Assembly (NCBI GenBank): GCA_000165345.1
Contig: CM000431.1
Coordinates: 128,001-192,000 of the forward strand
Length of the DNA stretch: 64,000 bases
Direction: 5' to 3'
In this document: piece by piece, positions 1 to 64,000 of the stretch
How the letters are laid out: the number at the start of each line of letters is the position of its first letter
How positions within the stretch are numbered: the first letter of the stretch is position 1
Notes under the pieces: generated by a model
Told to the model about the DNA's origin: nothing
Database searches by the model: none
What the model saw: only the letters and a program-made list of their open reading frames with translations
Translations under genes and position numbers: made by a program

Positions 1-3000
1 CTTTTTGAACAAAGTAAATCCGTTTCTTTTCTTTCTTTTCTGTAATTCTGTATTTGTTTAGATTCTCATTTTCTTTGATTATATCCTTTAGGAAATCATT
101 AATTTTAAGCTTATAATACTCATTATACTTGACAGGATTTGTTTTATTATCATCTTCTTTAAGATCTTTGGAAACTTTATTATAACATAAATAGTTATTC
201 GTCTCAAGATTGAATGGAATTGGTATTTTTGAATTTGGAAGTACTCTACTGGAAAAAAGTCCATCAGTAAAGAATACTTGAAGATCCATAGAAATCTCAT
301 TACTTAGTTCTAAAGGACTTAATATCCTTAAAATCTTCTCAACTCCTAATTGATCTTTTATATTTCTATGTTCAACTTGATAAAACAAGTAAGGACTTTC
401 AAAAAGAAGGCAATTTGAGTTGAATCCATTCTGAAGACTTTTATTTTCATAGTCCATTTTTGTATCTTTAAGATTTCGTATAAATATAGCAAATCTTCCA
501 GTATTGTCCAAATTAATAACCTTTTCAGTTGAAAATAATCTTTCAAAGTTAATTTGATCTTCATTTTTACAATATTCCTTAATTTTGGCTCTTCCTATAT
601 GAATTTGAAAGATCTGAATATTACTTGGTTGGAAACAGTAATTAATTTGATCAAGAACAATTTCGGTACCGTCATTAATAATATTGCATGTAGATCCAGG
701 ATCAATAAAATTATTATTTTTTGAATTTTGAAAGGTATCAAAATTGGGGTACCCTATTAATTGAATATCATAACCAGATTGATTAATAACTAAAATAGGT
801 CTGAATGGTTTAACAGAGCTGGAAAGTAGACATCCTCTAGTATTCCAAGCTCCATAATGTCTCAAGATAGTTCTAATGGTCCAAGGAGAAATGTTGAGAT
901 TTAAGGCAGAAAGAAGATGGAAATTGAGTCTTTTTGTGACCTTGCTTGAGCATGACTTATTTCTTGGAGAAAATCCATCATTTTGTACTAACTTATCTAA
1001 AGCCAGATTAAAATTACATCCTTCAATGATTGGCTCAAAGTATCCATGTCTTGGGTTCATGATCCAAAGTGAGAAATCTCCAGAATTTGTAATGGATATA
1101 GGATGATCAATAAGATAACTTCTAGAGCTAAGAATTAAGTTATTAGATTGTACAAAGATCATGAATAATGGGATTCCTGAGAAATCTTCAATAGAATTTA
1201 AAAGAATCAGCCTTGAATTTTGTATGATTACGTTTATGCTTAACTCTTCTTTAGCTTTTGAACTCCCTATTCCAAGGAATTCCTGGCTACTTGTAAACCT
1301 TTCAGAAATCCCATTAGTAAGAGATCTATATAGATCTGAATTCCTTGAGAGTTGTGATCTTTTTGAGAGAGACTTTTGCATTGACAATAAAACATCATAG
1401 AGGTCTAGAACATGTGGATAGTGTATTTGTAAAGTTATTGGTTGAGAAATTAACTTTAAGCTTCGATTGGTTTTGAGTGCCGCCTCGATCCCTTTTGAGA
1501 TAATATTATGTATGATCTGATGTTCCAAGCCATCCCAAATCACAAAACTTCCGAAATCTGCCATATGATATCCCAATTTTGAGCTGGAAATGGAGATATT
1601 TAGATTGGATTCAAAAAGCTGTTCCAAGTCATTTTCCCCTTGAATTCCATCTTGACTCTTTTCTTTTTTGCTTAAGTAACCCAGATCATAGGTACCTATC
1701 AAGTTTACTTTGGTTCTTAGGCCTGTATTAGATGCTAATATGCAACTGAATTTCTTTAGGCTTAAGTTTACCTCCATCAAATCCACTAAAAATCTGCTGT
1801 TATTTTCATCTTTTCTAGAATTCTCTTGCTCTATTATATCTGAATTAGGGAGACAAAAAGCCCTAGAGTAATCACTGTACCAATCATAAATCCCAAACAA
1901 AGATTGAATATCACAATCCGTATTAATGACTGGAGACTCAATACGAATCCGCCAGCTTGAACAGCTCGTATTTGTCTTTTTATTATCTCGAATATCATCA
2001 GAATCTTCTTTAAAGCTGTAGTATTGAACTTCAATAGGCTGCTCTAGATCCCGCTCCCTCCTCGGATTCTGGTTTTCCTGTAGATTCTGGTCCTCTTCTA
2101 CAATTGGTTTCAAAGCATTAAAGTAGCTTTCCAAATAATTCTCAAAATAAGCCTCCTTTGTGTAAACTGTAAAGTAGTGTTGATCCTCAAAGTTGGTTTT
2201 CTCCAATCTTTTATTTGACTCACTATCTCCTCTTTCCTGTTTGTGATCTTGATCTTGAGTTTGATCTTGAATGCAATATCCGGTACCGAAATTTGAATCA
2301 ACGTCAGAATGGTGAAAAGAATCAGGAATTGAAATTAAGAATGAAGGGTTCTGTTCGTCATTAAAGGTTAAAGAACTGAGAAGAAGGTTGAATGTGAAGC
2401 TTTGGTTTTGAGGAAATTTGCTCATAAACAAGTTAATTCCTTTAATCCTTACAATGGAAACCGTTTGTATAGAACCCTCCTTCGTCTCTTTTCCTTCTAC
2501 TTGAAGGACGTTACCATCAAATCCTATTAATTGTTTATTTTTCCAATCCCAATCTTTAATTAGATTAATTCTAATTAAAGGAAAACTGACAGAAATTGAG
2601 TTACTTGGTTGAATATCTTGATCTTCAAACCTCCCAGTAGGAATAATACTTGAACTTTCTCCTTCCTGTATACTATCTTGGAATCTCAAAGCTGCTCTCC
2701 TCCCAATAAATCTGTGTTGAATTAGCTGGGGAACATATCTTTTTTTTTTGGTACCTATAATAAATTGATCATCTTGAAGTTTCTCCTCCTTTAAGGAGAT
2801 CATAAATTCTGGATCTGAAATAGTTCCAGATGAAAGATTAGTGAGTTGTTTTACGAAAGGATCATAATTCATTAAGTTCCCAGAAAATGCCTTAATTAGT
2901 AGACTTAAAGTCTCAGGGTAAAGATTTAACTCCGCTTCTTTTTGCTTTGATTCGATGAAACAATTCATGTCAAATGAGTTATTCATTCCTTCACTGCATG

Positions 3001-6000
3001 TGTACCTCCTTAAATGAAAATTTAAGTCAGGAATTATCCCAAAAGGAATGGAACTTCTTCCTTCAGTTATCCCATAGTTTTCCTCTTCGAGATACAATCC
3101 CCAAATTTGTCTCATCCTCACATTCATCATCCTGAAGATGTAAAGATAAATCATGGAAGGATCCGATACTTGTCTAATTAAAGACTTGTTATTGAAATTA
3201 AAGAGTTCAATAAACATCTCAACTGAGGAAACTTTGTCAGGATCCGCATCATCAACAGATACTGATGGAATAATAAGCTTACTGTTTCTGAAGTTCATAC
3301 TTCTAAGAGGAACACATACATCTGAACCGCCTTCTATTTCTCCTCCAACTTTTTCCTGAGAAGGAAGAATAAGGGAAGAAGACTTTGATGATTTAACTAC
3401 TTCTGAATCCTTCACATTATCTTCTTCTAAATAATAAACAAAGCTCTGAATATTATCAATCAAGTACGAAAAGTAGTAAATATTGTGTAAAAATGCATCA
3501 AGAAATAAAACTAAAGTAATGTTCTCAGCCTCAACAAGCATCTCTGAACTTGAGATCATCTTTGATAGCCTTCCATGAATTAAATCTTCAATATCTTGAG
3601 CTCTCTGGTGAGAAATCATCTTCACCTCCATTATAGACGATTCCACTGAGCTATCCATCTTAAAGAAACACAAATCTTTCCTACCATTAACCATATTGTA
3701 TGCTTTCATCCTAATTACCCTAACAATAATATCTCTTCTTGTATCGTGATCACAGATTGATACCGTATTTTCAAATACTAACTTGAAAAACTCCGTATCT
3801 CTTTGAAATGCTACCAATTCAAAATTGCAAACATTAGCATCAATTAGGTACCTTGTCCACTTATCTGAAGTCTTTACTCCTATTTCTGAGCCTAGATCTT
3901 GGTCCTTTTTGGACTTAATCTCTTGTTCCGTACTTATATATGGTGAGGTAGTCCTTTTAAACAAACAAAGCAACTCTTGAAGAATTAATGGTCTCAAGTA
4001 AATAATAATAGACCCAATTTCCGTCCTAACCTGTACCTGATTGCTCTGAGAATAACCTGATCTGGATCTATTCAACCATTTAACTTTCTCATCCCTAGCT
4101 TTCTCAAGTGAAAGCTCCTCTTCAATGAAATGATATTGAGATGTTGGGAAACGAACAAAGCTAAAAGTGTTGCTGAGACTAAAGAGAGGAATTCTCTTGA
4201 TTCCTTTACACTCCTGGGATTCATCTTTAGAGTTAAGATAGCCTCCTTCTCTTTCAGCCTCTTTAATTCTCAAAAAATAATCCATGGAAAGCTGAGAAAT
4301 GGAAAAGTTAACCAGTCTATAGTGGTCGTGAATAAAGTTTAGGACTTGAATATCTCGTGTTCCCACATTCATCCAAGAATTATTATCTGATACAAAGTCA
4401 AATTTAAGACTATTTAGCCTTAAAAACCAAAATAACTGAATATTTAATCCAAGCTTAAACATTTTGAATTCCTTTTCTCTCGTCAATTTTCTCCCCAAAT
4501 TGAAATACTCACTTAAACATGAGTCATCCATCCATTGAATCATGTTCAAGTATATACTCTGGTAAACTTGAGGATCAAAATTGGATGTAATTGAGTTAAT
4601 TTGAATGGATGAGTAGATATTCTTAAGTACATCCCCAAGCTGAATCTCACCAATTGAACCTCCTCCAGTAGGTTTTGAATCCAAGCAAACAGAATTTGTT
4701 GATAGTACCAAATTCATGAAGGATCTCTCCTCGAACAAATCCTGGGAAAATGGATCTAGCTGAGTTAGTACGCCAAATAGCTTAATATACTTCATCCATG
4801 TCTCATCCAACATATTATACCTCTTGTATGATAAGAGATTCAACTTGATATCAATATAGTCAATGCTAAATAATCTATAAGAATTAACCATATCTACTCC
4901 TTTTGGAAGCTTTGGTGACCTTTTTTCACTCTTTCCTGACTCTCTCCTGTGAATATTGCTGGTATCTTGAATTCTAGCTCTGATTTTTTGTTCATCTTTC
5001 TCTATCCCAGTTGTTCCAGACTGGAAATCACTATAAATAGATAAATAGATTTCCTCAATCTTGGCATAATAACAGAGACTCTGAATACATTTAAACCAAT
5101 AAGTTGACTTTTCAGAAAGAACATATCTATAATATGGAGATACTTGAATGCCTCCCCCTACTCCTTTATTAATGAATGACTGAAGGTCAAAGCTGTTATT
5201 TTCAAATCTACTTTGGGGGCTTGAAATATCTAAAGAACTCTCCTCAAGTTCATATCCTCTCAAGATCTCTGAATCATTGTTAGATATTGAAATCTTTCCA
5301 AAACTTATTACATTGTAAATCGCACCTTCTAGTCTTGGATCTACCTTATGACAGAAAACCAAGATTGGAGTTTCAATTTGAATATCCACATCCATTAAAC
5401 CTGAATTTTGAAGAAATCCATCTCCTTGACTATTAATATCTCTTTTTTCTGAAATATCAGTTGAACCACTTTCGGTACAGGCCATATGATTATCTATTCT
5501 AGTCTTGGATTTATGTTTAATACCTTCTCCTCTACTTTTTCCAATACTCTTATTATACTTGTTAATTGCATTAACTAAAGCAGAAACAACGTTGGAATAA
5601 AAGATTGCATAGCATTTCTCAACGTTGATCTTAATAGTAGTTTTGCTACTTTCTGGAAATGAAGTTTCTAATCTCTTTGAAATGCTTCGATCCATAGAGA
5701 AATCAGAACTCATACTCAAAGAACTTCTCCTTCTGGAAGACCCTTGTACGTTGCAGATTGAGCTTTTTTTATTCAAGTAGTAGAATGTGAACCACATCTT
5801 TTCATCCTGTACGAGAGATTCATCCTCGTAAATTATTTGAAACCTCTCCTCATCTGGATCTGAGTAATCCAAATTAAACTCTTGTAAAACCGATAATAAA
5901 GAAATTCTTGAATCTGATTGAATGAATTCCAGACCAAAACTTCTCAAACTTCCCATCAAAGCACTTCTTTTGATCATCCTCAATCCTTCCTGTCCATCGA

Positions 6001-8083
6001 TTTTACTTCCTCCTGTCTCTACTGCAAACTCATCTCTAAGCACTACTTCAAGTTTTGTCTCTCTGAGCAAAACTCTGAAAGCCATGAAAGGAGTCTCAGA
6101 GCTAATAGCCCCAAACTGCTTGACAGTTGGAGAGGATTCCATATATAAAGGGTTCTCACTTTGAGATTTATCAAAAGATCCCAAATTCTGCTTAGATTCT
6201 GAAGTATTTTTATCCCCATCCTCCAAAGAATGATCAGAAAGACAGTCGAAAAATTGGAGATCTTCCATAGTCTGTTGAGCAAGAAATGCCTCATCTAACT
6301 CCACAGATCCATTAAAATTTTCATACTCTTCCTGTTTATTCTGCTCATCCTCGCTCTCCTGAGCATCAAAGAAAACATCATCAGCGCTATTCAAAGGAAC
6401 AGAAGAGATCCTATGGAACTTAAAAAGCCATTGAATCCAACTTCCAGACCCTCCTCCAGTAGCTTGAGAATCGCTATGGCTTGTCCTTCTAAAAGAATGA
6501 ATTTCCAACCTCTTTCCAACCCATTGATGTACTAGAGATGTATGCAAGGATACAAATCTAGAGAAAGGAACCCTAAGTATGTAATATTCTGAAAACTGTC
6601 TGGAAAAGTCTAAGAGCAGATCATTAAAGAGCCCACCATCGAAATACGGTCCAATGGAATCAAAAGTCATCTTTTCCTCAAAGTATTTGTGAAATTCCAT
6701 AGTATAATCCCTACAATACATTGATATCTTAGCTTCAGTAAAGTCTTCCTGGAGGCGAATATAAAGTGAAGAGTTATAACTTGACCTGGAAAATCGATGG
6801 GAACCAGAAATTGAAGAAATATCAGCTCTCCTATCCCTTATAATGCATCCTATTGCATATCTCCACCAAAGCTTTGCATTACCAATTACAGGAACATTTG
6901 GTCTATATAAAAACTTCCTCTCCAACATTGTCTTTCCCAATTCAATCTGTTTATTAAATGCCTGAATTTGGTTTAATATTCCTCCACAGTATGTGATTAT
7001 CTGTTCAGAAACTGTTACATAAATCTCTTCCAATACTCCATATATTGTGTATATTGGCATCTTAGATGCGTTAAACAAATCCTTTCTCTGTCTCAAAAGG
7101 AGCTTACAACAGAATGGATGCACAACCTGGTCCAACTCTTTTGGGGTCTCCTTTAAATTAGTTTCTCCATCTGTTGCCTCCCTTGCCGTATAGATTGAAA
7201 GGCCATCCAAATCCAGTATTCTATAAGAAAAGTCACTGGAATCTTTTTTCTGAAAGAATGGCTCAAACAACTTTTCGTCAGAACATTCACTCCTGGAACA
7301 AAATATTTCTTTCACTAACCCCAGATGTTCCTCGTACCCATGAATTTGGTCCGGACCCAATTCACTATTTACCTCCCTTGATGCCGAATTATTACCACTA
7401 ATATTAGTATCTTCATTTATACCAGAACCAACTGGTTTGGGGATAACCAAATCTTGGTCTACTAAAACCTGACTCAAATTTGGGATTGACCTAACTTCAA
7501 GAGAATCCAATACCAACCCACAATTCAACTCTTTGTTGGCTGAATCGCCAAGTTTAATATGAATCCTTCTAAACTTCAATCTTACATCTTGAATTAAAAC
7601 AGAGACTATTCTGCTCAAAAATGGTTTGCTTCCTCCTTTGCTACTGCTTCCCTTGACGCTAAAGTACTCATCCTCTGCCAACTCTGCCATAAAGTGAATA
7701 TTCCAGTGCTCTATTAACCGAAGTCTTTCTGAAATAACCAAACTCTCAATTTTCTCTGAATCAAACTCATTATGATCTATAAAACTTGCGTATAAATTCA
7801 CATCATCTATCTCTACAACTAATGGAGAACTGCTACCAGGTCTTAATATATTACTATAAGGAATCGATATGTTAATTGTCTCTATACAGCCGTACTTGAC
7901 TTTTATTGGAAGCCTTAATTGCTCCAAAAATCCTTCTTTTATCTTCACATTTCTGAGTTGTAGCTTGCCTGAATTTAATCCAAGCTCAAAACTATCCTCT
8001 GACACATTCTCTAAATACTTTCCTATAAATGTAGTAGCCCATTTAGACACAAAGCCTGCTACACGAGACACTGCTCGCCTCAT
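1..8083 (-). CDS. VPS13: VPS13-like bridge-like lipid-transfer protein (chorein-N). The gene is truncated by the window: ATG at 8083, reading down past position 1 with no stop (about 2694 codons in the window).
   Basis: Reverse-strand translation from the ATG at 8083 gives MRRAVSRVAGFVSKWATTFIGKYLENVSEDSFELGLNSGKLQLRNVKIKEGFLEQLRLPIKVKYGCIETINISIPY..PLVVEIDDV, which matches the VPS13 chorein-N pattern. The same frame (top coordinate = 1 mod 3) holds at spot checks near 6298 and 4861. The ORF track reports no minus ORF in that frame (it needs a stop inside the window), and the short minus ORFs it lists are all in the other frame. Confidence 0.7.
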   Translation of the reverse strand, partial: MRRAVSRVAGFVSKWATTFIGKYLENVSEDSFELGLNSGKLQLRNVKIKEGFLEQLRLPIKVKYGCIETINISIPYSNILRPGSSSPLVVEIDDVNLYASFIDHNEFDSEKIESLVISERLRLIEHWNIHFMAELAEDEYFSVKGSSSKGGSKPFLSRIVSVLIQDVRLKFRRIHIKLGDSANKELNCGLVLDSLEVRSIPNLSQVLVDQDLVIPKPVGSGINEDTNISGNNSASREVNSELGPDQIHGYEEHLGLVKEIFCSRSECSDEKLFEPFFQKKDSSDFSYRILDLDGLSIYTAREATDGETNLKETPKELDQVVHPFCCKLLLRQRKDLFNASKMPIYTIYGVLEEIYVTVSEQIITYCGGILNQIQAFNKQIELGKTMLERKFLYRPNVPVIGNAKLWWRYAIGCIIRDRRADISSISGSHRFSRSSYNSSLYIRLQEDFTEAKISMYCRDYTMEFHKYFEEKMTFDSIGPYFDGGLFNDLLLDFSRQFSEYYILRVPFSRFVSLHTSLVHQWVGKRLEIHSFRRTSHSDSQATGGGSGSWIQWLFKFHRISSVPLNSADDVFFDAQESEDEQNKQEEYENFNGSVELDEAFLAQQTMEDLQFFDCLSDHSLEDGDKNTSESKQNLGSFDKSQSENPLYMESSPTVKQFGAISSETPFMAFRVLLRETKLEVVLRDEFAVETGGSKIDGQEGLRMIKRSALMGSLRSFGLEFIQSDSRISLLSVLQEFNLDYSDPDEERFQIIYEDESLVQDEKMWFTFYYLNKKSSICNVQGSSRRRSSLSMSSDFSMDRSISKRLETSFPESSKTTIKINVEKCYAIFYSNVVSALVNAINKYNKSIGKSRGEGIKHKSKTRIDNHMACTESGSTDISEKRDINSQGDGFLQNSGLMDVDIQIETPILVFCHKVDPRLEGAIYNVISFGKISISNNDSEILRGYELEESSLDISSPQSRFENNSFDLQSFINKGVGGGIQVSPYYRYVLSEKSTYWFKCIQSLCYYAKIEEIYLSIYSDFQSGTTGIEKDEQKIRARIQDTSNIHRRESGKSEKRSPKLPKGVDMVNSYRLFSIDYIDIKLNLLSYKRYNMLDETWMKYIKLFGVLTQLDPFSQDLFEERSFMNLVLSTNSVCLDSKPTGGGSIGEIQLGDVLKNIYSSIQINSITSNFDPQVYQSIYLNMIQWMDDSCLSEYFNLGRKLTREKEFKMFKLGLNIQLFWFLRLNSLKFDFVSDNNSWMNVGTRDIQVLNFIHDHYRLVNFSISQLSMDYFLRIKEAEREGGYLNSKDESQECKGIKRIPLFSLSNTFSFVRFPTSQYHFIEEELSLEKARDEKVKWLNRSRSGYSQSNQVQVRTEIGSIIIYLRPLILQELLCLFKRTTSPYISTEQEIKSKKDQDLGSEIGVKTSDKWTRYLIDANVCNFELVAFQRDTEFFKLVFENTVSICDHDTRRDIIVRVIRMKAYNMVNGRKDLCFFKMDSSVESSIMEVKMISHQRAQDIEDLIHGRLSKMISSSEMLVEAENITLVLFLDAFLHNIYYFSYLIDNIQSFVYYLEEDNVKDSEVVKSSKSSSLILPSQEKVGGEIEGGSDVCVPLRSMNFRNSKLIIPSVSVDDADPDKVSSVEMFIELFNFNNKSLIRQVSDPSMIYLYIFRMMNVRMRQIWGLYLEEENYGITEGRSSIPFGIIPDLNFHLRRYTCSEGMNNSFDMNCFIESKQKEAELNLYPETLSLLIKAFSGNLMNYDPFVKQLTNLSSGTISDPEFMISLKEEKLQDDQFIIGTKKKRYVPQLIQHRFIGRRAALRFQDSIQEGESSSIIPTGRFEDQDIQPSNSISVSFPLIRINLIKDWDWKNKQLIGFDGNVLQVEGKETKEGSIQTVSIVRIKGINLFMSKFPQNQSFTFNLLLSSLTFNDEQNPSFLISIPDSFHHSDVDSNFGTGYCIQDQTQDQDHKQERGDSESNKRLEKTNFEDQHYFTVYTKEAYFENYLESYFNALKPIVEEDQNLQENQNPRRERDLEQPIEVQYYSFKEDSDDIRDNKKTNTSCSSWRIRIESPVINTDCDIQSLFGIYDWYSDYSRAFCLPNSDIIEQENSRKDENNSRFLVDLMEVNLSLKKFSCILASNTGLRTKVNLIGTYDLGYLSKKEKSQDGIQGENDLEQLFESNLNISISSSKLGYHMADFGSFVIWDGLEHQIIHNIISKGIEAALKTNRSLKLISQPITLQIHYPHVLDLYDVLLSMQKSLSKRSQLSRNSDLYRSLTNGISERFTSSQEFLGIGSSKAKEELSINVIIQNSRLILLNSIEDFSGIPLFMIFVQSNNLILSSRSYLIDHPISITNSGDFSLWIMNPRHGYFEPIIEGCNFNLALDKLVQNDGFSPRNKSCSSKVTKRLNFHLLSALNLNISPWTIRTILRHYGAWNTRGCLLSSSVKPFRPILVINQSGYDIQLIGYPNFDTFQNSKNNNFIDPGSTCNIINDGTEIVLDQINYCFQPSNIQIFQIHIGRAKIKEYCKNEDQINFERLFSTEKVINLDNTGRFAIFIRNLKDTKMDYENKSLQNGFNSNCLLFESPYLFYQVEHRNIKDQLGVEKILRILSPLELSNEISMDLQVFFTDGLFSSRVLPNSKIPIPFNLETNNYLCYNKVSKDLKEDDNKTNPVKYNEYYKLKINDFLKDIIKENENLNKYRITEKKEKKRIYFVQK

Positions 8084-8877: not shown

Positions 8878-11268
8878 TTATCTGCTTGATTCTGAGTAAA
8901 AAAAATCATGATATTTAGGGCTCTTTAATACTGCTTGTTTCTGAGTTTGAGGCCTCGTATCATATCCTAAGTTAATATTTCTTCCAGAATGAAGTTGAAG
9001 AGTGTTTGCCTGTGACTGAGCTACATAATATGGTATAGTTTTTTCTGCTTCTCCGCCTTCACCTGAGTTCATATACTCAGGAGAGAACGTTGTATCCTCC
9101 ACAGAAACTATACTTTTTTTCTCTGGTGGAGCTATGTTTGAATCATAGCTGATACTTTTTTGGCTCATATGTACAATTTTTGACCCTTTTCTTGCTAGAA
9201 TTGGTTTTATTGAAGCAAGTTGCAAACTATTTAGCTTATTCCTAATTATTTCCTTGTTTGAATTGTCCACATTTTGAGCAGATTCAGTATCATCTGACCT
9301 TCTTCTCAAAAAGAAGACGCAACAAAACATTAATATAAGCAGAATCAATAGAATTCCAATAACTACCCCAATGATTAACTTTTTATTGACTGTTCGTTCT
9401 ATTACATCAAAATGCCCTTCTATTGACTTTTCCATCTTTACCTGCCCTGCTTCATTCAAATAACTCAATTCTTGGGTTTCTTGTGGATCATCGCTTTCAG
9501 AGTTAACATACTCTCCTGCTCCAAATCCCAATAATGAGTTTTCTGCCTCTTTATCAGAATTCATATCTATAATCCCAGAGTCCCTCTTGACTATGTTATT
9601 GCCTGTCAAAGAATTTGAGTTTTTTTTCACATAGGCGCTAGTCCTCACATTCTCTGTCTTTGGAGTATAGAGCGACTTTCCTGTAGTGTAGAATCGTGGC
9701 CTAAGAGTGGTTGTTGTGTTTTTAGTTGCTGTAGTGCTTTTCTTTGTGGTTGTCGTTTCTGTTGTTGTGGTTGTTGTTGTTGTGGTTGTGGTTGTGGTTG
9801 TGGTTGTGGTTGTGGTTGTTCTCGTAGTGGTTGTTGTAGTATTTGTAGTGGTGGAGGTGGAGGTATGTTTAGAACTGTTAGCAGGGTTATTCTTAGTGAA
9901 ATCATTATCAGAGGAAGTTGTGGTATTCGGGAATACTACTCCTTTAGAGGAAATGGTTGAAACATTACTTGAATAAACTTCTTCAACTCCTGAATTTCTC
10001 CCAATTGAAGAATAGTCTGAGAAAATAGGTTTTGTAACAGGAACCAATATATCTTCAATAGAGTCAGAACTCTGCTTGTAGATCATCTCCTCCAGGGTAT
10101 CGTTTCTTTCTTCATTCGCACGCCCGGATTCTGTACTATCAGACTCAAAACTTCCAGATGAGCTTCTATCCAAAGGATGGTATGTTGGTTGAGCGCTTAA
10201 ACCAATGAGCTTCATTTCATCAGACAAAGCTGGAATAGTACCTGGATCCTGATCCCAATAAAATGTTTTCTTCTGCTTATACCTTGGAAGATCCAAATAA
10301 GAATTATGGTAAACTTGGTCCCCTCCTTCGTTAGTTGAATCCTCTTTCCAGTTAAAGTTGATACTAGGAAAGTTTAACGAACTCTGATACGAGCTCCAAG
10401 CTGAGTCCAGGATATTTGAGACATTTTGACAAAGACCAACTGATAAATTATTCTCCCAAGCATCTGTACAGTTCAAATTATTGTAACCTGGAAGATCAAG
10501 CTTTGGCTCTTTACTAATAATTTCATCAGTCTGCTTAATTAGCTCTGAATATTTATTGGGATTCAGCCCACCAGAATCATAAGCTACTGTACCACAAACT
10601 GCACAAGAAAGCTCAGAATCTATAAGCCAACACGGCCTTCTTCCTAACCCTCCAATATCAAAAAAGCCACACTTTTCAAAGGGAAATTTGAATCTTAATA
10701 ACCAGCTTGCATTATAACTTGATGTCCAATTAATTTCAGAATCTCGAACTGATACGGGACTTCCACTATCTATCCAGTACCATCCTGGCGGATACCTGAA
10801 AAATGCATACTTTCTAAGTCCGACAAAACATCCATTTGCAGTCTTATGAATATCCCCTTGTTCCACAAGAGTTCTTCTGATTGCTTCTTCATCTGATAAC
10901 TTATATACTGAAGCCAATGTTACTGGGTACTCATTGGTTTCTTTAGACCCATTTCTTCTTCTTGTCTCTACTTCAGTTCCACCTAAATCATTGCAAGCCT
11001 TAAAACCGTGGGAAAATGTCCTAGGCCGGTCAAAAGTGACCAGCTTGAAACATCTTGTTTTCTCACCATTTGAAATCCATCCTTCCGGACAATTTGCATG
11101 GCCAGTATCTCCTAACTTGCTAACTTCTCTTCCAAAAACCCCAGAAACTACTATTAAACTTAATAATACTAAATTTGCACAATAGTGATTTGCCTATTAA
11201 ATTATATTAGACGCTACCGAGTCAAACATACCTATTAAACAATCCTTTAATTCATTAATCAGCCTCAT
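8878..11268 (-). CDS. C-type lectin domain mucin-like type-I membrane glycoprotein (CpClec-like). Two exons: 11268..11232 and 11168..8878.
   Basis: Track ORF 8878..10917 begins with a TTG translated as M, and the frame stays open upstream to 11168. The upstream part reads ...VLLSLIVVSGVFG|REVSKLGDTGHANCPEGWISNGEKTRCFKLVTFDRPRTFSHGFKACNDLGG...LASVYKLSDEEAIRRTLV...CFVGL...WYWIDSG...CGFFD..., a CTLD signature. It is followed by a poly-Thr mucin stretch, one TM helix (IIGVVIGILLILLILMFCCVFFL) and a cytoplasmic tail with YxxΦ-like motifs. No in-frame ATG lies before the upstream stop. A candidate exon 1 (ATGAGGCTGATTAATGAATTAAAGGATTGTTTAATAG, MRLINELKDCLI) ends at a GTATGT donor. A 63-nt intron ending TTTAG joins it in phase to exon 2 (1+2291 nt = 764 codons), giving signal peptide MRLINELKDCLIVLLSLIVVSGVFG. 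Confidence 0.7.
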
Positions 11269-11406: not shown

Positions 11407-11418
11407 TTTGGCGCCAAA
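11407..11418. promoter_or_regulatory. Palindromic E2F-like motif TTTGGCGCCAAA in the 181-bp divergent promoter between the CpClec-like and Cet1-like genes.
   Basis: Exact TTTGGCGCCAAA. The same TGGCGCC core recurs in most intergenic promoters of the window. Confidence 0.55.
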
Positions 11419-11449
11419 ACTTTGGTTATTACTTTAATATTATTATAAG

Positions 11450-12827
11450 ATGAGAAACAAAGAGATGGGGAAAACTAATCTTGACGAGTACGAGTTAATT
11501 GTAAGTTTTCTTATACAATTTTTTGCTTCAATAGTTAATTAACTTCTAATATTACTAATAGGATGGCTCATTTTCAACGGGATGTAGTCAGGAAATTGAG
11601 TTCATTGCACAGTCTTTGGTTGATCTAGTCGAGGCTTCCCCTGAGCTTTTAAATATGGATGGGAAAGTTGATTTGGAGGTAAGTTCCTTTATTAGTTTGT
11701 TTCTTGGAGCTTCTCAATAACTTCCTTTTATTTAATCACCGTAAATCTGCTTTGATCACTAGGTTGAAGGACGTATTGGGACTTTAATTAATGAAAATAC
11801 AAAGGAGAAGGTTTTACTCCCTGTGGAGGGAATGTGTTTGCTACTTCCAAGTGAAAAAGAGTTCTCCTACCGTTTTTCTCCTGGTTTGGAAAAGTGGCAA
11901 ATGACAAGTGTTGTAGAAGAATTAAGAAAGGATTTTGACGAGTCAAAAATCCCTTATATTATCAAAAATAGGAATACAAATGACTACTATGTTCATAATC
12001 CGAATAAATCAGAAACAGAAGACAAATCACTAATTAGATTAAGTTATATTTCTCCAAAAAATCAAAAAGATAAACCAACTGAAGCGATATGGAAGGAAAA
12101 GATTGCAGTCTTTGATTTTTGCTCTCCAGGCCAGCCTGGAGACTTGGAGACCAAACACAATATTGAGAATGGTACATTGCTTAAGGATTTCAGAATTGCG
12201 ATCAACCTTGAACATAAGGAGAATCCTATCGAAGTTGCCAATACTGTTACTGGTCCAATTGAAAATTCATGTGTTTTGGAAAGAAGAAGAGAAAGAGAAA
12301 CCGTAGAAGTTTCAAATTTTGTTCTAGACTCTACTCATGTGGTACAGATTGAAAGTCGCAGGGGATTTAGGCAATGCGAAACTTATGAATTAGAACTAGA
12401 GCTTAAGCCTTCCCACTTTATTCCTCTATTAAAGTCTTATATAGAGGATACAAACAATGGGAAATTGAAAGTAATAGGAACTCATCCTTTCATTAAGCTA
12501 CTTACCAACTTTGTTAATTTGGTGTTTGGAATTACTCTATTTCTCAATAACAAAAAACCAAATGAACAAATCGAATCTTCTATTCAAAACTCATCTGGAA
12601 ACGAAAACCAAATTATGGATTTAACAAGTTGTACTCAATCCAATGAAATAGTCCAAGCCTTCAAAAAATACGTCTCACCCATTACTCCTATACTCGGAGA
12701 CTATTTATATAGAGCCGTAGCTAGTGAGAAGCAGAAACTTAACAGACCACAAGATATTATTTGCAAGGATGATATAGATATTTCACTCGGAATTAAGCCT
12801 TTACCTCCTGATACTAAAGAAATCTAA
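11450..12827 (+). CDS. mRNA-capping RNA triphosphatase (Cet1/triphosphate-tunnel metalloenzyme family). Three exons: 11450..11500, 11562..11678, 11763..12827.
   Basis: ATG at 11450. Both introns have GTAAGT donors (11501, 11679) and AG acceptors (TAATAG|, CACTAG|), and both are in phase 0. The spliced N-terminus reads MRNKEMGKTNLDEYELI|DGSFSTGCSQEIEFIAQSLVDLVEASPELLNMDGKVDLE|VEGRIGTLINEN.. and carries the TTM beta1 ExExR motif (LEVEGRIG). A C-terminal YELELELK resembles the second metal-binding ExE strand of Cet1. Track ORF 11823..12827 is only exon 3 (GTG shown as M). Confidence 0.55.
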
Positions 12828-12835
12828 TTCATTCA

Positions 12836-13377: not shown

Positions 13378-13705
13378 GCTTTCTTTATCGAGTAATTAAA
13401 GTAAATCCAGTTATATATTCCTCCTAAATATTCTGATAATTAACCCGATTAGTTTTCACTTGAAAACAATAATTCTGGAGTTCAAGTAAAACTGAAAATT
13501 CAACTCAATAAAAGCCTTGTTATTTGCGTACTCGCAACTAATTCTCGCTTTAACACTTCTTGCCAGTACACAAAACGCTAAAATTCTCTACTCCTTTGCT
13601 AATTTACCTCACAAAAAAAAGTGTATACCGGCATCGTTTTCCCGCCCATTTTTTGGAAATAATTATATTATTTTTGACATGGGTGTAAATTCTTGAAAAT
13701 CAATT

Positions 13706-14386: not shown

Positions 14387-14477
14387 AGGAAAATAATCTA
14401 TTCGGACAATATTACTTAGCATGACCATAAATATTACCTACTATGGATTTTTGCTCTTGTAAGTTGAAACAAAATAT

Positions 14478-52500: not shown

Positions 52501-53851
52501 TTTCAATAGAAACCATATGAAAAAGAAGATGGGAAAATTACATGATAGATTCTTGAGTGGATTTGATGTAGAGATTAGAAAAGGAATGATAACAGCTTTA
52601 TCAGCAATATATACTAACTTTGGGGATTCTGGTCCTCCTCCAAAGGTAAGAACAGTACTTGGATCAAATCAAGTAGGGTCAGGTTCAGCCCCAATAACTG
52701 ATAGAAACACTCCATGGGGTCATGCAAATGCAAATGGAGATGTAAGTACTGGAGATGAGTATTCGTGCGAGGAAGGAACAAAACTTACTCAAATAACTAT
52801 GGCTTATAAGAGGAACTCTATAGAACAGAAACAAGAATTAATAGGTTTGAGGATTACTTGTAATGATGAAGATTATGAGCAAGTTGGAATGTGGGATGTT
52901 TCAGATAATAATTATATTCTTGTAGAGGAAACCTTTGGACTGAGGGAAAAAGAGTTTATAATAGCGATAGGAGGAACCAGGATTGATAAGACTCATAGTA
53001 TAGGAAAACTCTATTTTGAGACAAATCTTCTAAGACAGTTTGGGGAATGGCAGCATTATTATGTGGAGGCAAAAACAAGAGGAGATGGGTTGTATGGATT
53101 TGAATTGTTATTTGAGAAGACAGGAGATTATACAACTCCAATAGCAATGCTATTACCATTGTTCAGACCAACTTCAATGGATACAAGGAGTGAAGATTTG
53201 GAAGAGAAGAAATATAAATCTCCATTTGAATTACCAAAAGCAGTAGCAGAGTCATCAGAGGAAGCAAATGAGCAAGAAATGAGAGGAATGTTAAGTTCTC
53301 CAACAATTGTTACAGATTGGATTGGATTGGACATTGGAAGCTTAGAGATGGATGGAATTTGGTGTAAGACTTCAAGGCTAAAGTTGGATGGAAGAATGAC
53401 TTGGGAAGATTGGAGGAACTCAAGAATGACAGGATTGAGAGTATATAATGATGGAGACCACATTAAAGGAATAGCTCTTCAATGTGGGAATTCTTGGTTA
53501 GAGGAGGCAAATCTTGGTCTAGTTGGCCCGAAGTTCCATTTTGATGAAATTAGTGATTGTTTGGAGAGTGATGCTGATTATATAGAGAATATTGAAGTTG
53601 CTATTGATTCTAGAGGTATTCCGGCAGGGTTTAAAGTATTTAGCCACGTTAAGAGGCAGAAGAAAGTTTTAATTAATAATAATTCTATGGTGACTTGGCA
53701 ATCAAATGTTCCAGATTCAGGAAATCACTATGCTTCAGGCATTCATGTTGAATACGACCCTGATACTAATATTATATTCAGAGTTAGAATAGTCTATCGT
53801 CCAATTTCAATTGCAGAAGACCCTGAGGAAAATGTCGGGTTTATATTTTAA
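49529..53851 (+). CDS. Large (1440 aa) secreted protein made of about 8 copies of an unrecognised ~150-aa module marked by a Cys-bracketed hairpin C-x2-G-x2-[IL]-T-G-[LI]-R ... [IL]-x-G-[LI]-x-[IL]-x-C.
   Basis: A signal-peptide-like ALFLAFLIIFIGG follows the internal Met. Repeated segments: CKPYESLIGIRAWF..LRGIQFLC; CDGKITGLQGFF..LVGIKVEC; CPTGVPLTGLRLIM..YLVSLSIQC; CPPGIPITAVRMWF..LVGLRIRC; CAPGSRLTGLLVHT..IIGLTLIC; CEEGTKLTQITMAY..LIGLRITC; CKTSRLKLDGRMTW..IKGIALQC. Cys spacing is 23-36 aa. Confidence 0.6.
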   Translation: MRKSEKCRKEIMKALFLAFLIIFIGGWGGGKLVRVESLKTSAKRYQERERVPSRLPPPREEPPVFQRYLYSYPKDYGYYFFNRISDSNYWDRINGENKQIPIEGWQWDNTSNNWLWGPLRNQDGTPLLPLSPELEAPRAYVGPTRIYGPIQVDDLPIPRVLDIICKPYESLIGIRAWFPNPESKGRKDLRGIQFLCSSPLDTRVKGGSKHSTWSRIMGNVGPNLKKYTVLTRPEDPFVKIRVFVETLNPVKHQSQRELVIPTYQGPRLVYIDNQEEALEKGPIYLIRRITLRTKNNHLSFLGKAGGNLPSVVESAPEGYELSGFRILISGYPRSKWRGADFSTLAYRNSISLGFLFSKTEDILSRPQVIYGRRGYDFQDIKCDGKITGLQGFFMGNRGLVGIKVECDRVWQEVILGITEGTDYKALVGSMISAVTLHLSPEKFIQSLVVFSTTGRQQKLGDDWVTPTIRSSKSEGGGRGKILQGIFAELDKTGAISGIGFHWKKPPKPGQAGDREDYGNLEVSESPLEGGDTGSLGNSSKKEIVPRSSFYGRVAKDCPILETKCPTGVPLTGLRLIMRKGETQPKPFKMYLVSLSIQCGDEFFKPVGNPNLIEAGKKRTYDILIHEEDPVVDFRVYLGDLGLPHLFDLRFKHDVLSSYELYGFRVAMMIRSERIGAIAPLYRVATPIDLPPITAKDISIRLFGAVRPESDPDVVVLETSCPPGIPITAVRMWFVRKIEGNNVFSRLVGLRIRCGSKWRKTKLGSSMGDRFEAEVESGDFFSRSFVENQSEKPFYVSGIMLVTLENRKSSFGETGTEIMKKLASGDVESEIYGFIGQETPEGLVSIGFLERKANYDDYPTFNDIEVAPYQVSASDIQGESEGSLNEEKLIESGIVNFRPGEEWFGRRGLGGSHAEETFCAPGSRLTGLLVHTSTKIPHSIIGLTLICDGKPLNPVGSTLGDIARYEIPMNEPIEKVEVVLNKEDRSLSRLKLFNRNHMKKKMGKLHDRFLSGFDVEIRKGMITALSAIYTNFGDSGPPPKVRTVLGSNQVGSGSAPITDRNTPWGHANANGDVSTGDEYSCEEGTKLTQITMAYKRNSIEQKQELIGLRITCNDEDYEQVGMWDVSDNNYILVEETFGLREKEFIIAIGGTRIDKTHSIGKLYFETNLLRQFGEWQHYYVEAKTRGDGLYGFELLFEKTGDYTTPIAMLLPLFRPTSMDTRSEDLEEKKYKSPFELPKAVAESSEEANEQEMRGMLSSPTIVTDWIGLDIGSLEMDGIWCKTSRLKLDGRMTWEDWRNSRMTGLRVYNDGDHIKGIALQCGNSWLEEANLGLVGPKFHFDEISDCLESDADYIENIEVAIDSRGIPAGFKVFSHVKRQKKVLINNNSMVTWQSNVPDSGNHYASGIHVEYDPDTNIIFRVRIVYRPISIAEDPEENVGFIF

Positions 53852-55184: not shown

Positions 55185-56276
55185 ATGGAGCAAAATTCAA
55201 TTGTTCCATACCACAATGGAAGGAACTATCCTGAATATGGCCAGTTAACAAATTATTATCCTAATAATACAAATAATAATGGGAATGATTCAAAGTCTGC
55301 TCCATATGAGATTCCGGGATGTCCAGTTTTCAGTGTTTTCATAGCGACAGTTGTTGGTATTTTATGGCTCTTCTTTGCATTAACATTACCAGCATACCAT
55401 TATGCAAGAGTAGTTTTTCCAATAGATAATTATATTGACTTAAATTTCGGATTATGGACAGTACATGTTTCTTCAAACTGCGATTCATTCGTTAGTTTTG
55501 ACGCAAATAAGAAGATGTGTAGATTTATAGTTTCAAGAATGGATAATTTAAGTATTTCAGATGCTACAAACTTTATTTGTAGTCTTGAAGCTGGTACATT
55601 ACAACTTTTAAATCTTGGTTGTAATAAATTCCACTTGTTAAGAATTGGTTCATCAGTTATCATGACAATGTTTATTTTATCAATCATATTACTATTCTTT
55701 GCAGCAATCTTTTTATTAACATTTTGGTTCTGTTATCGTACAAGACGTGTGAGACAAAGTATATTTATGCTTCATTTCATTTCAGCATTAACATGCGTTC
55801 TTGGTATTGTTGGATATCTTCTTGTTGGTGGTCTTACTATACAGCCATTTAGAGATTCTTCAATGTTTGGAATAGGTAGTAGTATGTTTGCAAGACTATT
55901 CTTTGTTGATATTTCAAGAACATTTGATTTGTCAACAGGTTTTGCTTTTGCTGCTTTTGGAATGATTTGGATTGTTTTATTACCTTTATGGTCAGTTTGT
56001 GCATTACCATCAGATATTTGTGTGGATGCTATTGAAGTTATTGAGGATACAACATACGAGGAGGAAGAGTTAAAGAAGCTTTTGGGTTATTCAGGACTTT
56101 TTGGACAAAACTATGGTAATGAACAGTCTGCTGCTAATAACTCTTATTATTATCAGAATAATCAAAACCAGAATTATTATAATCATCAATATCCTCAATA
56201 TTATCAGGGCCAACAGAATCATAATCCATATGGGCAACAATATCCTTATTACAATCAACAATATAGAGGTTATTAG
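55185..56276 (+). CDS. Tetraspan (4-TM) membrane protein with a Cys-containing extracellular loop and a Q/N/Y-rich prion-like C-terminal tail.
   Basis: 363 aa. Helices: VFSVFIATVVGILWLFFAL, VIMTMFILSIILLFFAAIFLLTFWF, FISALTCVLGIVGYLLVGGL, AFAAFGMIWIVLLPLWSV. A loop carries 4 Cys. The tail reads NNSYYYQNNQNQNYYNHQYPQYYQGQQNHNPYGQQYPYYNQQYRGY. Confidence 0.5.
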   Translation: MEQNSIVPYHNGRNYPEYGQLTNYYPNNTNNNGNDSKSAPYEIPGCPVFSVFIATVVGILWLFFALTLPAYHYARVVFPIDNYIDLNFGLWTVHVSSNCDSFVSFDANKKMCRFIVSRMDNLSISDATNFICSLEAGTLQLLNLGCNKFHLLRIGSSVIMTMFILSIILLFFAAIFLLTFWFCYRTRRVRQSIFMLHFISALTCVLGIVGYLLVGGLTIQPFRDSSMFGIGSSMFARLFFVDISRTFDLSTGFAFAAFGMIWIVLLPLWSVCALPSDICVDAIEVIEDTTYEEEELKKLLGYSGLFGQNYGNEQSAANNSYYYQNNQNQNYYNHQYPQYYQGQQNHNPYGQQYPYYNQQYRGY

Positions 56277-56389: not shown

Positions 56390-57660
56390 GATTCCTACTA
56401 CTTTATTACCACTACTTTTACTACCACTAATATTACTGTTACTACTACTACTACTANTACTAATANTANTATTATTATTATTATTGGTAATACTANTTTC
56501 AANACTATTACCAATGATAATTCAACAAATAGCNTCAGCTGTTTATAGTATTAATATTANTTCAAANCTTTTAATTCCATTNNCANCCATTTTNATCCAT
56601 TNCATTCTCTCTATTCCCCTCTCAANAAGTGGATTTATGTAATAACTTTAATAAGTTCGTTATATATCGAAANATAAATGTGTATAATCNTTGTACTATT
56701 GTTCGAGCATATTAGCAAGAATTATATTAAACTGGAAGAGAAATAGTAGAAGAAGAAAGTANGNATAGAGAATGAGTTAGAATTTGATAGTATGTCCAAG
56801 ATTTAGTTTATATTTCTATATTATACAANTAAAATCTATGAATTTTACTAGTTATTTTTTCTANGNTTATAGTTATTTTAAAGTTAAAATAAAATCTTTT
56901 ACTTGAAAATTTTAACATATCTCATATATTCTATTTGTTTTATNCACNAGATTTACTTTCTNATGTTATATTACTANTCAATTTTTGAAAATGCGAATAT
57001 TNTATTNGATACATGCGATTTGCATGCATCCACATAAATTCNCGNNATACCGTTTAAAGAAATATGGTAATTACGTGTCAATTTTTCTNTTTGAATAATN
57101 TTAATGGTATTTTTAATAGTATTANTATAANTAGTAGAAATTGTATTAAAAATTAGAAATGTTAGTGTGAATAAAGATATTAATANATTATTATTAGTAG
57201 AAATAAGTGGAAAACAAATAGTACTAAAATTGTAATTATTCNGATTAAAATAGTTTTTTTTTTTANTTTTTTAAATAAATAAAAAAACTTAAGTTAAATA
57301 TTAGATTTAATAATTAAATAAATGGGGTGGATACATATAATTTTANTNTTTCTAATCAATAATTTAATGATTAAGNACATGNAAATAAGTGTAGGTTATT
57401 TATTGATTANATTAAATTNTTTNGATAGTTNTTATNTTCANTTCCTNNNNNNANGNNTCTTTAGTAATTGATTTCCAGAAGAGATTTCCTGAAGTTGGAG
57501 TGTTNCGAAAATCTTGATAATTATGGACTCATAGTNCTNTNNTNNNNANTANTATNATTANNATTATCGNCAATATNNTCANGATTNNCCNNCTGTTNNN
57601 GCTCGNATNACNGTNGGTANAACTATTGNCTTNANNTNCATNTNNNANNNGTATATTTAC
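56390..57660. repeat. Low-complexity TAC/ATT microsatellite region containing many N characters (unresolved or low-quality assembly stretch).
   Basis: (tac)n/(att)n runs such as ctactactactantactaatantantattattattatt. Scattered N positions run from about 56457 to 57660, and dense N runs at 57447-57460 and 57540-57650. Confidence 0.7.
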
Positions 57661-59701
57661 AGTATTAGCAGTATCCTCAACTCCAAGTGAACTAACAGCT
57701 AAAGTTGTGGAAAGTCTTAAAATTTCATTTGGATTATTAGAAGCAGTTTCCAATTTAATATATGCAAATAATGAGATATTACTTTGTACTAGATCAATAT
57801 CAATAATAATTTGATTTTTATTTAAAGGAAATAATTCAATTGGAATTTTAAATTTTGAAATAGTACCTACAAAATCATTACTTTTCTTTTTATTTACTAT
57901 TTTATTTTCTCCAATTAATCCTTCTTGATTATTGAAATATTTTTTTATGTTAGTTTGTATAGTTGTAGTTTTTTTATTATTTACATTAATAGCTTTATTA
58001 ATTCCATCTAAAGTAGCTTCCATAAATAATGGTAATTTATTTGTATTCGTATTATGACTAATATGTGGAGCTATATCATCTAATAATTTATTTACCAAAA
58101 TAATTTCGTCTTCATTTAATATTAGAATATATCTCTGTGTTCCATCTTCACTTGATGTTATATTATACATGATAAGATAATTATCTAAATCAAAAGAAAT
58201 TTGTTCTTGTTTTGTTGTGTTAATACTTTCAAGTTTTTGATTATTATAATGGTCATCAATTAAAATATGATGACGTTTTTTATGTGGATTTTTTGTATTG
58301 ATTCCAGTATTATTTACTGAATTTATTTTCATTTGATCTTGATTGGATTGTTCTTCTATTTCATTTTGATTATTTTTTATGATCGTAGAGTTGTTTGAAT
58401 CATTAGTAGTATTTGAAAGAATAGTATTATTAAAGTTATCAAATTGTGTAGAATTTTCTGTAATATTTGTTATAAAGTTTGATTCTTTGAAATATTCCTC
58501 AGTATTATTGTTTAAAGATAAGGCATCTTTTGTTTGATTGGTTACTTTTTCCTGTAAATCTTTGATTTGAAGAAATTCTGAATTTGTTTGAGTATTTTTG
58601 TCCAAGGGTATTCCTCCATTGATCAAATTTCCAATATTTGCAGGAATGGTCGTATTTGCGGTAAAGTTACCAGTTGAAGAGCTTGAATCTTTGATTTCAA
58701 TTTTTTCTTCTTGTTTGTCCTTATTTTCTTTTTTCTCACCCTCCTTTTCTTTCTCACCCTTTTCTTTTCTTTTCATCCTCTTTTTCGGTCTTCTTCTTTT
58801 CTTCTACCTTTTCGTCCATCTCTTTTTTATCCTTTTCTTCCTCCGTTTTCTTTTCGTACTTCTTTTCATTCTCTGCCATCTTTTTATCCTCCACCTTCTT
58901 TTCGTCCTTTTCATTCTCTGTCTTCTTTTCATCTTTCTTTTCATTCTCTGTCTTCTTTTCTTCATCCGTTTTCTTTTCTTCCTCCGTTTTCTTTTCGTCC
59001 TTTTCATTCTCTGCCATCTTTTCATCCTCCACCTTCTTTTCGTCCTTTTCATTATCTGTCTTCTTTTCTTCATCCGTTTTCTTTTCGTCCTTTTCATTCT
59101 CTGCCATCTTTTCATCCTCCACCTTCTTTTTGTACTTTTCATTCTCTGTCTTCTTTCCTTCCTCTACCTTCTTTTTTCTCTCCTTTTCTTCCTCCATTTT
59201 CTTTTCGTCCTTCTCCTTTTCGTCCTTCTTTTCATTCTCTGTCTTCTTTTCATCATCTGTCTTCTTTTCGCTCTTCTCTTTCTCCTTCCCTTGTATTGGG
59301 TTGTATATCTCACTATGTAAATCTATATTTGCAGAATTTTTGATTTCATTTCTCTGATTATTTCTCAGTGATAGTTTTGCCTTAGAAATTGAGGAAGACT
59401 CAGAAATTTGTGTAGAATTATCGTTACTAATCAATGAAAATTCTGTCTTAATATTTAAAACTACTCCCTGTTGTATATTGCTTTTCAACTTTAATATTCT
59501 TCCACTGCATGATTCTCCTATTGTATTAATTTCACAAACTTGATCATTATTTTGCTTTTGAGAATTTTCAATCTCAGCTATTTGATCTTCTGCTAAAATC
59601 TCATAATTCTCCAATCTAACGCTTTCTGATAACCAAACAAAGCTAAATATTACTAAAATAGGAAGAAATAATCTTCCAAACTTAATTATATGCATTTTCA
59701 T
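57529..59701 (-). CDS. Secreted protein with a signal peptide, KE-rich 15-aa tandem repeats and an N/T/S-rich C-terminal region. It is split by an apparent frameshift near 58754-58776, and its 3' end runs into the N-containing gap.
   Basis: Track ORFs 58754..59701(-) and 57529..58776(-) are adjacent, overlap by 23 nt in different frames and share composition (..KKTEKEDEKKRKG* / MKRKEKGEKEKEGEKKENKDK..). The N-terminal MKMHIIKFGRLFLPILVIFSFVWLSESV is a signal peptide. The shift lies in gaaaagaaaagaaaaggg. The downstream ORF ends inside the N-rich region, so the true 3' end is unknown. Confidence 0.5.
58740..59285. repeat. Coding tandem repeat with a 45-bp unit in two alternating variants (90-bp super-unit), encoding EKKVEDEKMAENEKD / EKKTDEEKKTDNEKD on the minus strand.
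   Basis: Repeated ...cgtccttttcattctctgccatcttttcatcctccaccttctttt / cgtccttttcattatctgtcttcttttcttcatccgttttctttt... The plus-strand ORFs 58598..59320, 58711..59343 and 59130..59357, and the minus ORF 58804..59142, are alternate-frame artefacts of this repeat. Confidence 0.75.
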
Positions 59702-63454: not shown

Positions 63455-63703
63455 TTATGAAAATAATATATAACTTATTTATATATTTTTTTTCTCTTTT
63501 TTTTTAATAATAATTTTTTGTATTATTATTTTCTATATATTTTCCAATACTTAATTTCTTTATTATAAATATGATTTATTAACTTGTTTGTATTTATGTA
63601 ATTGATGATATACTTAGTAGTTTTTGTTTAATGGAATATTTGAATTTGGATTTTAGATTGTTTAAGACTTGGAATCCTCTAATATAGATTCAAATGTAGG
63701 ATT

Positions 63704-63724
63704 TTTAGGTTTAGGGTTTTTAGG
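63704..63724. repeat. Telomere-type hexamer repeats TTTAGG-TTTAGGG-TTTTTAGG (Cryptosporidium-type telomere unit) at the proximal edge of the subtelomeric array.
   Basis: aggatttttaggtttagggtttttaggcctaa. Confidence 0.6.
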
Positions 63725-64000
63725 CCTAATTCCAAGTTTAGGACTCTCAGGCCTAAATTCCAGGCCTAACTTCCAAGCCTAATTCCAAGTTTAGAACTCA
63801 CAGGACTAAATTCCAGGCCTAACTTTCAAGCCTAATTCCAAGTTTAGAACTCACAGGCCTAAATTCCAGGCCTAATTCCAAGCCTAGGATTTCCCACCTA
63901 AATCCAGGCCTAACTTCCAATGACTAAATTCCGAGCATAAATTCAAGTCCTAAATTCCAAGTTTAGAACTCTCAGGCCTAAATTCCAGGCCTAATTCCAA
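63725..64000. repeat. Subtelomeric tandem repeat of about 54 bp with embedded CCTAAA (telomere C-strand) motifs. At least 4 to 5 copies run to the window end.
   Basis: Unit ttccaagtttagaactc[at]caggcctaaattccaggcctaa[ct]ttccaagcctaa recurs at about 63730, 63784, 63838 and 63955, with one longer degenerate copy. Confidence 0.7.

Follow-up and report, generated by a model that had tools for sequence, protein, structure and literature searches.

Does the 64,000-nucleotide stretch of DNA presented above (hereafter the window, meaning that whole stretch) come from the end of a chromosome? The original prediction, made from the letters alone, took it for a subtelomeric segment of an apicomplexan, Cryptosporidium-like chromosome and not for a prokaryotic accessory region, and it read the repeats at the right-hand end as telomeric TTTAGG. 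We find that the window almost certainly lies inside chromosome 3 (IOWA lineage) of Cryptosporidium parvum, a gut parasite, and covers about 131 to 195 kb of a 1.10-Mb chromosome and the genes from cgd3_430 to cgd3_640. The organism was thus named correctly and can now be given to the species and the chromosome from both DNA and protein identity. The placement near a chromosome end does not hold, and the repeat that suggested it is an internal minisatellite.

Placement within Cryptosporidium parvum chromosome 3

Exact look-ups of the window's proteins led to NCBI records the size of whole chromosomes, each about 1.10 Mb. One of these, CP044420.1 (1,102,616 bp), is chromosome 3 of C. parvum IOWA-ATCC in assembly GCA_015245375.1. 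BLASTN alignment to this record gave (i) 99.995% identity over 20,657 bp for window positions 3730-24386, (ii) 100% identity over 21,170 bp between window 12949-34118 and CP044420.1:143968-165137, and (iii) 100% identity over 21,344 bp between window 31085-52428 and CP044420.1:162104-183447. In sum, about 48.7 kb of the window (3730-52428) is 99.995-100% identical to this chromosome. The last part, 45185-64000, is 99.3% identical; it has about 123 differences, 98 of which come from an N in the window. The window therefore lies in forward orientation at about 131,020-195,019 of CP044420.1 (the fetched loci were not reversed), and beyond its right end another 907 kb or so of chromosome 3 follows, with more genes. 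Comparison with Cryptosporidium assemblies had been proposed with the expectation of near-identity or strong synteny to a chromosome end; near-identity and synteny were found, at a position inside the chromosome.

The proteins give the same picture. Twenty of the window's proteins were looked up, and 19 gave exact matches to proteins that carry the name C. parvum in NCBI and UniRef. They include EAK89199-EAK89217 from the Iowa II strain and CPATCC_0010xx entries, and the matching clusters carry chromosome-3 locus tags (cpbgf_3006xx, such as cpbgf_300620; CPHLJ_3g455; Cgd3_500). The order of the genes in the window is the annotated order in three C. parvum assemblies, with orientations as in CP044420.1.

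Could the window instead come from another Cryptosporidium species, or from a divergent C. parvum subtype that is hypervariable at 56.4-58.0 kb? About 120 differences from CP044420.1 do cluster there, which at first sight speaks for such an origin. Of these, however, 98 are N in the window, identity elsewhere is 99.995-100%, and C. hominis and C. tyzzeri reach just 88-98% over the same region. We consider this origin highly unlikely. A polymorphic hot spot at 56.4-58.0 kb, considered as a candidate, was withdrawn on the same count of N characters: the cluster is an artefact, due to low assembly quality in the source record, that mimics a hypervariable block.

Three points weigh against the assignment or limit its reach. 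The first 3,729 positions of the window are covered solely by the VPS13 reading frame and its Pfam match, since the DNA-level comparison starts at 3730. Scattered N bases and an acyl-CoA synthetase (ACS) of 685 residues set the window apart from CP044420.1, where this protein is annotated as 683 aa and "partial"; a few small differences from that record also lie at 58.5-59.5 kb. Finally, the names rest on three anchored genes, cgd3_500 (through its UniRef name), cgd3_520 (through a published peptide) and cgd3_640 (PMC8717973), from which most of the other cgd3 numbers used here were interpolated, while cgd3_440 and cgd3_600 were assigned by position; most gene identifiers thus follow the literature. 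Because of the N bases and the 685-aa ACS, the window comes, by inference, from a sister record of the IOWA lineage, other than CP044420.1, and plausibly from the older Iowa II reference. The region has in any case already been sequenced, annotated and published, and it contains nothing new.

The repeat at the right edge

The claim of a telomere concerned the end of the window. The repeat found there has a short TTTTTAGGTTTAGGGTTTTTAGG seed followed by units of 12-14 bp, (A/G)GGCCTAA(A/C)TTCCA, arranged in 53-bp higher-order repeats. The seed includes a telomere-like palindrome, TTTAGG|CCTAA. A start of a TTTAGG telomere at this point has some evidence in its favor: the tail contains CCTAAA/TTTAGG hexamers, positions 63704-63715 are a perfect TTTAGGTTTAGG (two TTTAGG copies), and AAACCT/AGGTTT is the unit of true Cryptosporidium telomeres (PMC11685829). 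That dimer, however, occurs once in the last 300 bases, and nowhere in the window does the hexamer, read on either strand, run perfectly for more than two copies; a match like TTTAGGTTTAGG with one mismatch allowed turned up in 45 of 100 shuffles. Most of the 12-14-bp units show CCTAA(A), which is the C-rich strand and the wrong polarity for a right-hand telomere.

In CP044420.1 the array stops after about 700 bp and gives way to unique sequence and then to a minus-strand gene of 863 aa. Two other C. parvum assemblies were fetched over a longer stretch, and there genes of 882 and 582 aa follow the 863-aa one. Every chromosome-level assembly fetched has the same genes to the right of the window (863, about 880 and, where the locus reaches, 582 aa). 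The array itself occupies the convergent intergenic region after CpACS1, the window as a whole lies at 131-195 kb of the 1.1-Mb chromosome, and no subtelomeric multicopy family is present among the 23 window genes; one such family, the insulinase-like block cgd3_4170-4280, is at the other end of this chromosome (PMC12688253). A subtelomeric position with a telomere starting at the right edge is thus very improbable, and the mapping refutes it. We conclude that the right-edge repeat is a fast-changing internal minisatellite and no chromosome end, and that its likeness to a telomere is real but superficial.

How fast the array changes can be read from its length. C. parvum IOWA has about 700 bp of it and another C. 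parvum assembly about 320 bp; in C. hominis it measures about 270 bp, and C. tyzzeri has 1-2 units. Contigs built from short reads end within the array. One may ask whether such a repeat, instead of being a neutral minisatellite, is a functional remnant of internal telomeric sequence, for instance a site of past fusion, of protein binding or of fragility. C. parvum, C. hominis and C. tyzzeri have its telomere-like seed, TTTTTAGG(G)TTAGGGTTTTTAGG, in conserved form, the repeat unit contains CCTAAA, and the rapid change of array length between lineages would also fit. The seed, however, amounts to just about three degenerate units. The array is almost absent in C. tyzzeri, and its expansion is therefore recent and without conservation. 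In C. parvum, C. hominis and C. tyzzeri, the species fetched, the genes on both sides stand in the same order, and this speaks against a fusion point. A functional relic is accordingly quite unlikely, and we retain the reading as a minisatellite. Whether this minisatellite could be a so far undescribed fast-evolving, length-variable repeat or, less likely, an internal telomere-like element with a role in chromatin or fragility, is rather doubtful; if the former were true, the repeat after CpACS1 would help to type C. parvum isolates.

Genes, introns and upstream motifs

The window is AT-rich, with a mean GC content of 33% and values of 24-38% in 4-kb bins. Long reading frames fill both strands, and once gene models are placed about 79% is genic and 21% intergenic. 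Its content is 23 tightly packed protein-coding genes of mixed orientation and one tRNA-Glu (Table 1). Judging from this layout, the 23 genes would be transcribed separately. Short AT-rich intergenic regions with known promoter motifs lie between them, and the region behaves as ordinary, annotated eukaryotic nuclear DNA.

Four gene spans exceed their products. For these, we searched for GT..AG removals that keep the frame open and make its length equal to the annotated one, and obtained seven short introns in four of the 23 genes, as had been predicted, though only four of the seven start with GTAAGT. The Cet1 gene has two, at 11501-11561 and 11679-11762, both GTAAGT..AG; a second, non-consensus solution fits its length too, an ambiguity that is settled because the spliced protein is an exact database match. 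The LisH gene has introns at 13250-13340 (GTAAGT) and 13100-13160 (GTAAGA), and the 177-aa gene at 18076-18229 (GTAGGT) and 18544-18641 (GTAAGT). The spliced LisH and 177-aa products are exact matches as well, making three of the four spliced proteins. In the CpClec gene, a single 63-nt intron at 11169-11231 (GTATGT..AG) is the sole one-intron answer among ten of the right total length. Its spliced product has no exact match, and the small first exon is therefore less certain.

Pfam recovered VPS13_N (E 9e-30), mRNA_triPase/Cet1 (3e-13), GSHPx, Aa_trans, three TPT domains, PAN_1 (4e-10), DUF900 and AMP-binding, in agreement with the VPS13, Cet1, SLC35 and PAN proteins named beforehand; two MFS_1 matches were weak and below the gathering score. 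The secreted proteins also expected are borne out by hydrophobic N-termini in about 10 proteins and by source names that read "signal peptide-containing." FOPNL had been named too. The LisH domain of the 129-aa protein is clear from Pfam, which detected this domain alone, and a PDB search with the protein returned just a weak match to LIS1. Pairwise BLASTP to a hand-entered human FOPNL sequence gave 33% identity over 123 aa (E 9e-19). With a reference of this kind, the protein is rated as likely FOPNL/FOR20-like, short of proven.

No observation favors an origin of the window from a prokaryotic or mobile-element accessory region. Against such an origin stand its exact identity to C. parvum in protein and DNA, the spliceosomal introns, and genes for VPS13, Cet1, SLC35 and a C-type lectin domain. 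We saw no integrase or transposase among the Pfam matches of the window's proteins and no CRISPR-like array among its repeats, as the original prediction had stated. This origin can be regarded as refuted.

The tRNA-Glu is of the Pol III type, as expected. It has an exact internal B box (GGTTCGATTCC), no encoded CCA and, after TC at its 3' side, the predicted TTTTT terminator at 54370-54374, 2-3 nt past the 3' end. This tRNA was the sole Rfam match in the whole window.

Upstream motifs of two types are known in C. parvum, the E2F-like TGGCGCCA / DTTGSCGCCH / TTTGGCGGGAAV and the AP2_1 motif BGCATGCAH (Oberstaller et al. 2013, PMC3734150), and both occur here. The octamer TGGCGCCA has five matches against 0.05 expected, all five intergenic. 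Its shorter relatives are intergenic in 12 of 12 cases (GGCGCC), 13 of 15 (GSCGCC) and 23 of 27 (TGGCGS). The palindrome had been placed in nearly every intergenic region. Its enrichment and its intergenic location stand; its ubiquity does not, the exact octamer being present in 4 of the 23 intergenic regions, GGCGCC in 7 and TGGCGS in 11. To make "nearly every" true, one would have to count any GGCG[G/C] core. The predicted GCATGCA motifs are there, with 24 matches against 2.6 expected, and all nine AP2_1-type TGCATGCA sites are intergenic, while intergenic DNA makes up 21% of the window. E2F-like GC cores are thus almost wholly intergenic, and E2F binding to them is putative. According to the literature, the GGCGCC-type and TGCATGCA motifs would be acted on by E2F and ApiAP2 factors, respectively, and would thereby function as promoter elements.

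One intergenic region is GC-rich. Between the convergent genes cgd3_510 and cgd3_520, positions 24119-24450 have 45-48% GC vs the window mean of 33%, and two E2F-like TGGCGCC sites (24326 and 24350) lie in this region, where no annotated gene starts. As a candidate non-coding RNA it was rejected, with no Rfam match at E<=1 and folding z-scores of -1.0 and 0.0.

The "mucin" and the "CTLD" (C-type lectin domain) of the original prediction are both present, and they are one protein, the published CpClec. CpClec is cgd3_440 (PMC12688253), and its parts come in the order signal peptide, C-type lectin domain (encoded at 10561-11118 on the minus strand), poly-Thr mucin tract and transmembrane helix. 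The lectin domain was hard to detect directly: a Pfam scan of CpClec gave no PF00059 (Lectin_C) match, the domain being too divergent; a word-indexed homologue search with residues 1-349 returned nothing; a single-sequence PDB search gave just a weak match to echicetin, a snake C-type lectin (E 0.36); and a single-sequence AlphaFold model of the domain had a mean pLDDT of 33 and was unusable. Exhaustive phmmer with residues 30-215, on the other hand, found 15 homologues (E 1e-13 to 6e-4), and when these are aligned with the query, PF00059 is present in 11 of the 16. A profile of this family matched solved C-type lectin domains, namely, Ly75 (1e-37), PLA2R (8e-33), KLRB1 (3e-9) and the carbohydrate recognition domain of DC-SIGN (8e-7). 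The cysteine framework and the WxWxD motif (W113/W115/D117) are invariant among the homologues, C..W..C..C..G.R.Y..W.W.D..C..C..C..C. By homologues and family profile, then, the domain is assigned as a C-type lectin domain (PF00059), with sugar and Ca2+ binding putative. According to the literature, CpClec is a lectin, either at the surface or secreted, whose ligands are sulfated proteoglycans of the host.

Among the remaining genes, the source names of the first two SLC35/TPT paralogues are "fucose translocator ... within locus of 3 paralogous genes" and "Cgd3_500 protein," and those of the divergent transporter pair are "protein with 12 transmembrane domains" and "Major facilitator superfamily." Residues 29-40 of the PAN protein are PEYFNDGPFPSL, the published immunogen peptide of cgd3_520 (PMC8710574). 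From 38501 to 53851 runs a series of domain-less signal-peptide proteins (550, 447, 688 and 1,429 aa), broken by the 1,173-aa DUF900 hydrolase; the last of the series, if its positional number is right, is cgd3_600, listed in a review as the dense-granule protein CpDG1 (PMC12688253). In the 745-aa protein, tandem repeats of 45/93 bp (58832-59284, minus strand) encode a Lys/Glu-rich repeat of 15 residues (e.g., KKTENEKDEKKVEDE), and the length of this region varies among C. parvum assemblies, in which the counterparts have 717 and 745 aa. CpACS1 is cgd3_640 (PMC8717973) and, according to the literature, a fatty-acyl-CoA synthetase.

Table 1. Features of the window, with positions counted from its first letter unless stated otherwise
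Feature	Position	Strand	Basis and remarks
VPS13-like protein, 4,420 aa in CP044420.1, first 2,694 codons here	1..8083	-	Pfam VPS13_N 8.7e-30; cgd3_430 by position; runs off window start
CpClec (cgd3_440), 775-aa type I membrane protein	8878..11268	-	Gene call and splice solution; identity from position next to Cet1
Exact E2F-like palindromes TGGCGCCA	11409, 19044, 26996, 27010, 36421 (span 11409..36428)		All in promoter-bearing intergenic regions
Cet1-type mRNA 5'-triphosphatase, 410 aa	11450..12827	+	Pfam mRNA_triPase 3e-13; exact match "mRNA triphosphatase Cet1-like protein"
LisH/FOPNL-like protein, 129 aa	12836..13377	-	Pfam LisH 5e-7; exact match "LIS1 homology motif containing protein" CPHLJ_3g455
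Glutathione peroxidase, 218 aa	13730..14386	+	Pfam GSHPx 2.6e-26; exact match EAK89216.1 (C. parvum Iowa II)
Amino-acid transporter, 534 aa	14478..16082	-	Pfam Aa_trans
Signal-peptide or membrane protein, 366 aa, unknown function	16713..17813	+	Exact match EAK89213.1; hydrophobic N-terminus
Signal-peptide and transmembrane protein, 177 aa	18027..18812	+	Spliced product exact match cpbgf_300490 / CPATCC_0031370
SLC35/TPT nucleotide-sugar transporter, paralogue 1	19172-20470	+	Pfam TPT; tandem of three
SLC35/TPT paralogue 2 (cgd3_500)	20958-22142	+	Pfam TPT; source name "Cgd3_500 protein"
SLC35/TPT paralogue 3	22949-24118	+	Pfam TPT; exact protein at this locus
cgd3_520, secreted cysteine-rich PAN/Apple protein, 683 aa	24635..26686	-	Pfam PAN_1 4e-10; exact match EAK89209.1
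Signal-peptide protein, 2,285 aa, without recognised domain	27559..34416	+	Exact look-up and Pfam
12-TM (transmembrane) MFS-like transporter, one of divergent pair	34614-36089	-	Weak Pfam MFS_1 under gathering score
12-TM MFS-like transporter, other of divergent pair	36602-38083	+	Weak Pfam MFS_1 under gathering score
Signal-peptide protein, 550 aa, unknown function	38501-40153	-	Exact Iowa II match; N-terminus read
Signal-peptide protein, 447 aa, unknown function	41085-42428	+	Exact Iowa II match; N-terminus read
Signal-peptide protein, 688 aa, unknown function	42792-44858	+	Exact Iowa II match; N-terminus read
DUF900 alpha/beta-hydrolase protein, 1,173 aa	45488..49009	+	Pfam DUF900 1.3e-22
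Signal-peptide protein, 1,429 aa; cgd3_600 by position	49562..53851	+	Exact look-up
tRNA-Glu(CTC)	54377-54450	-	ARAGORN; Rfam tRNA 62.5 bits
363-aa protein, unknown function	55185..56276	+	Clusters with cpbgf_300620, which is this gene with a shorter call
98 isolated N bases	56457-57650	.	Intergenic region and 3' end of the 745-aa minus-strand gene
Signal-peptide protein, ~745 aa, Lys/Glu-rich repeats	57446..59683	-	3' end damaged by N bases
Acyl-CoA synthetase CpACS1 (cgd3_640), 685 aa	61397..63454	+	Pfam AMP-binding 4e-54; exact match EAK89199.1
Start of internal minisatellite	63697..64000	+	Array runs past window, ~700 bp total in IOWA
Minisatellite array in fetched loci	L012 18497-19205; L001, L022, L024		Intergenic after ACS in L001, L022 and L024

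Comparison with known systems

This window moves no open biological question forward. The gain lies in two corrections, namely, that the segment is internal and not subtelomeric and that its end is a minisatellite and not a telomere, and in the advice that the segment is worth removing from searches for new prokaryotic or mobile systems, as annotated nuclear DNA of a well-studied parasite.

Set beside what is known, its elements are familiar. The upstream motifs have the same sequences as those of Oberstaller et al. (2013) and are almost all intergenic, if less universal than had been supposed. With Cryptosporidium telomeres, (TTTAGG)n, the tail of the window shares the hexamer, including one perfect dimer; unlike them, its array is internal, is built of 12-14-bp units mostly of C-strand polarity, is bounded by unique sequence and has genes beyond it.

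For the lectin, Ludington and Ward reportedly described CpClec of C. parvum in 2016 as a C-type-lectin mucin-like glycoprotein (cited in PMC12688253 and PMC11363900). The protein encoded here shares with the published CpClec the signal peptide, the C-type lectin domain, the Thr-rich mucin tract, the transmembrane helix, the cytoplasmic tail and the place just upstream of Cet1, and its lectin domain is divergent enough to escape direct scoring by the Pfam Lectin_C model.

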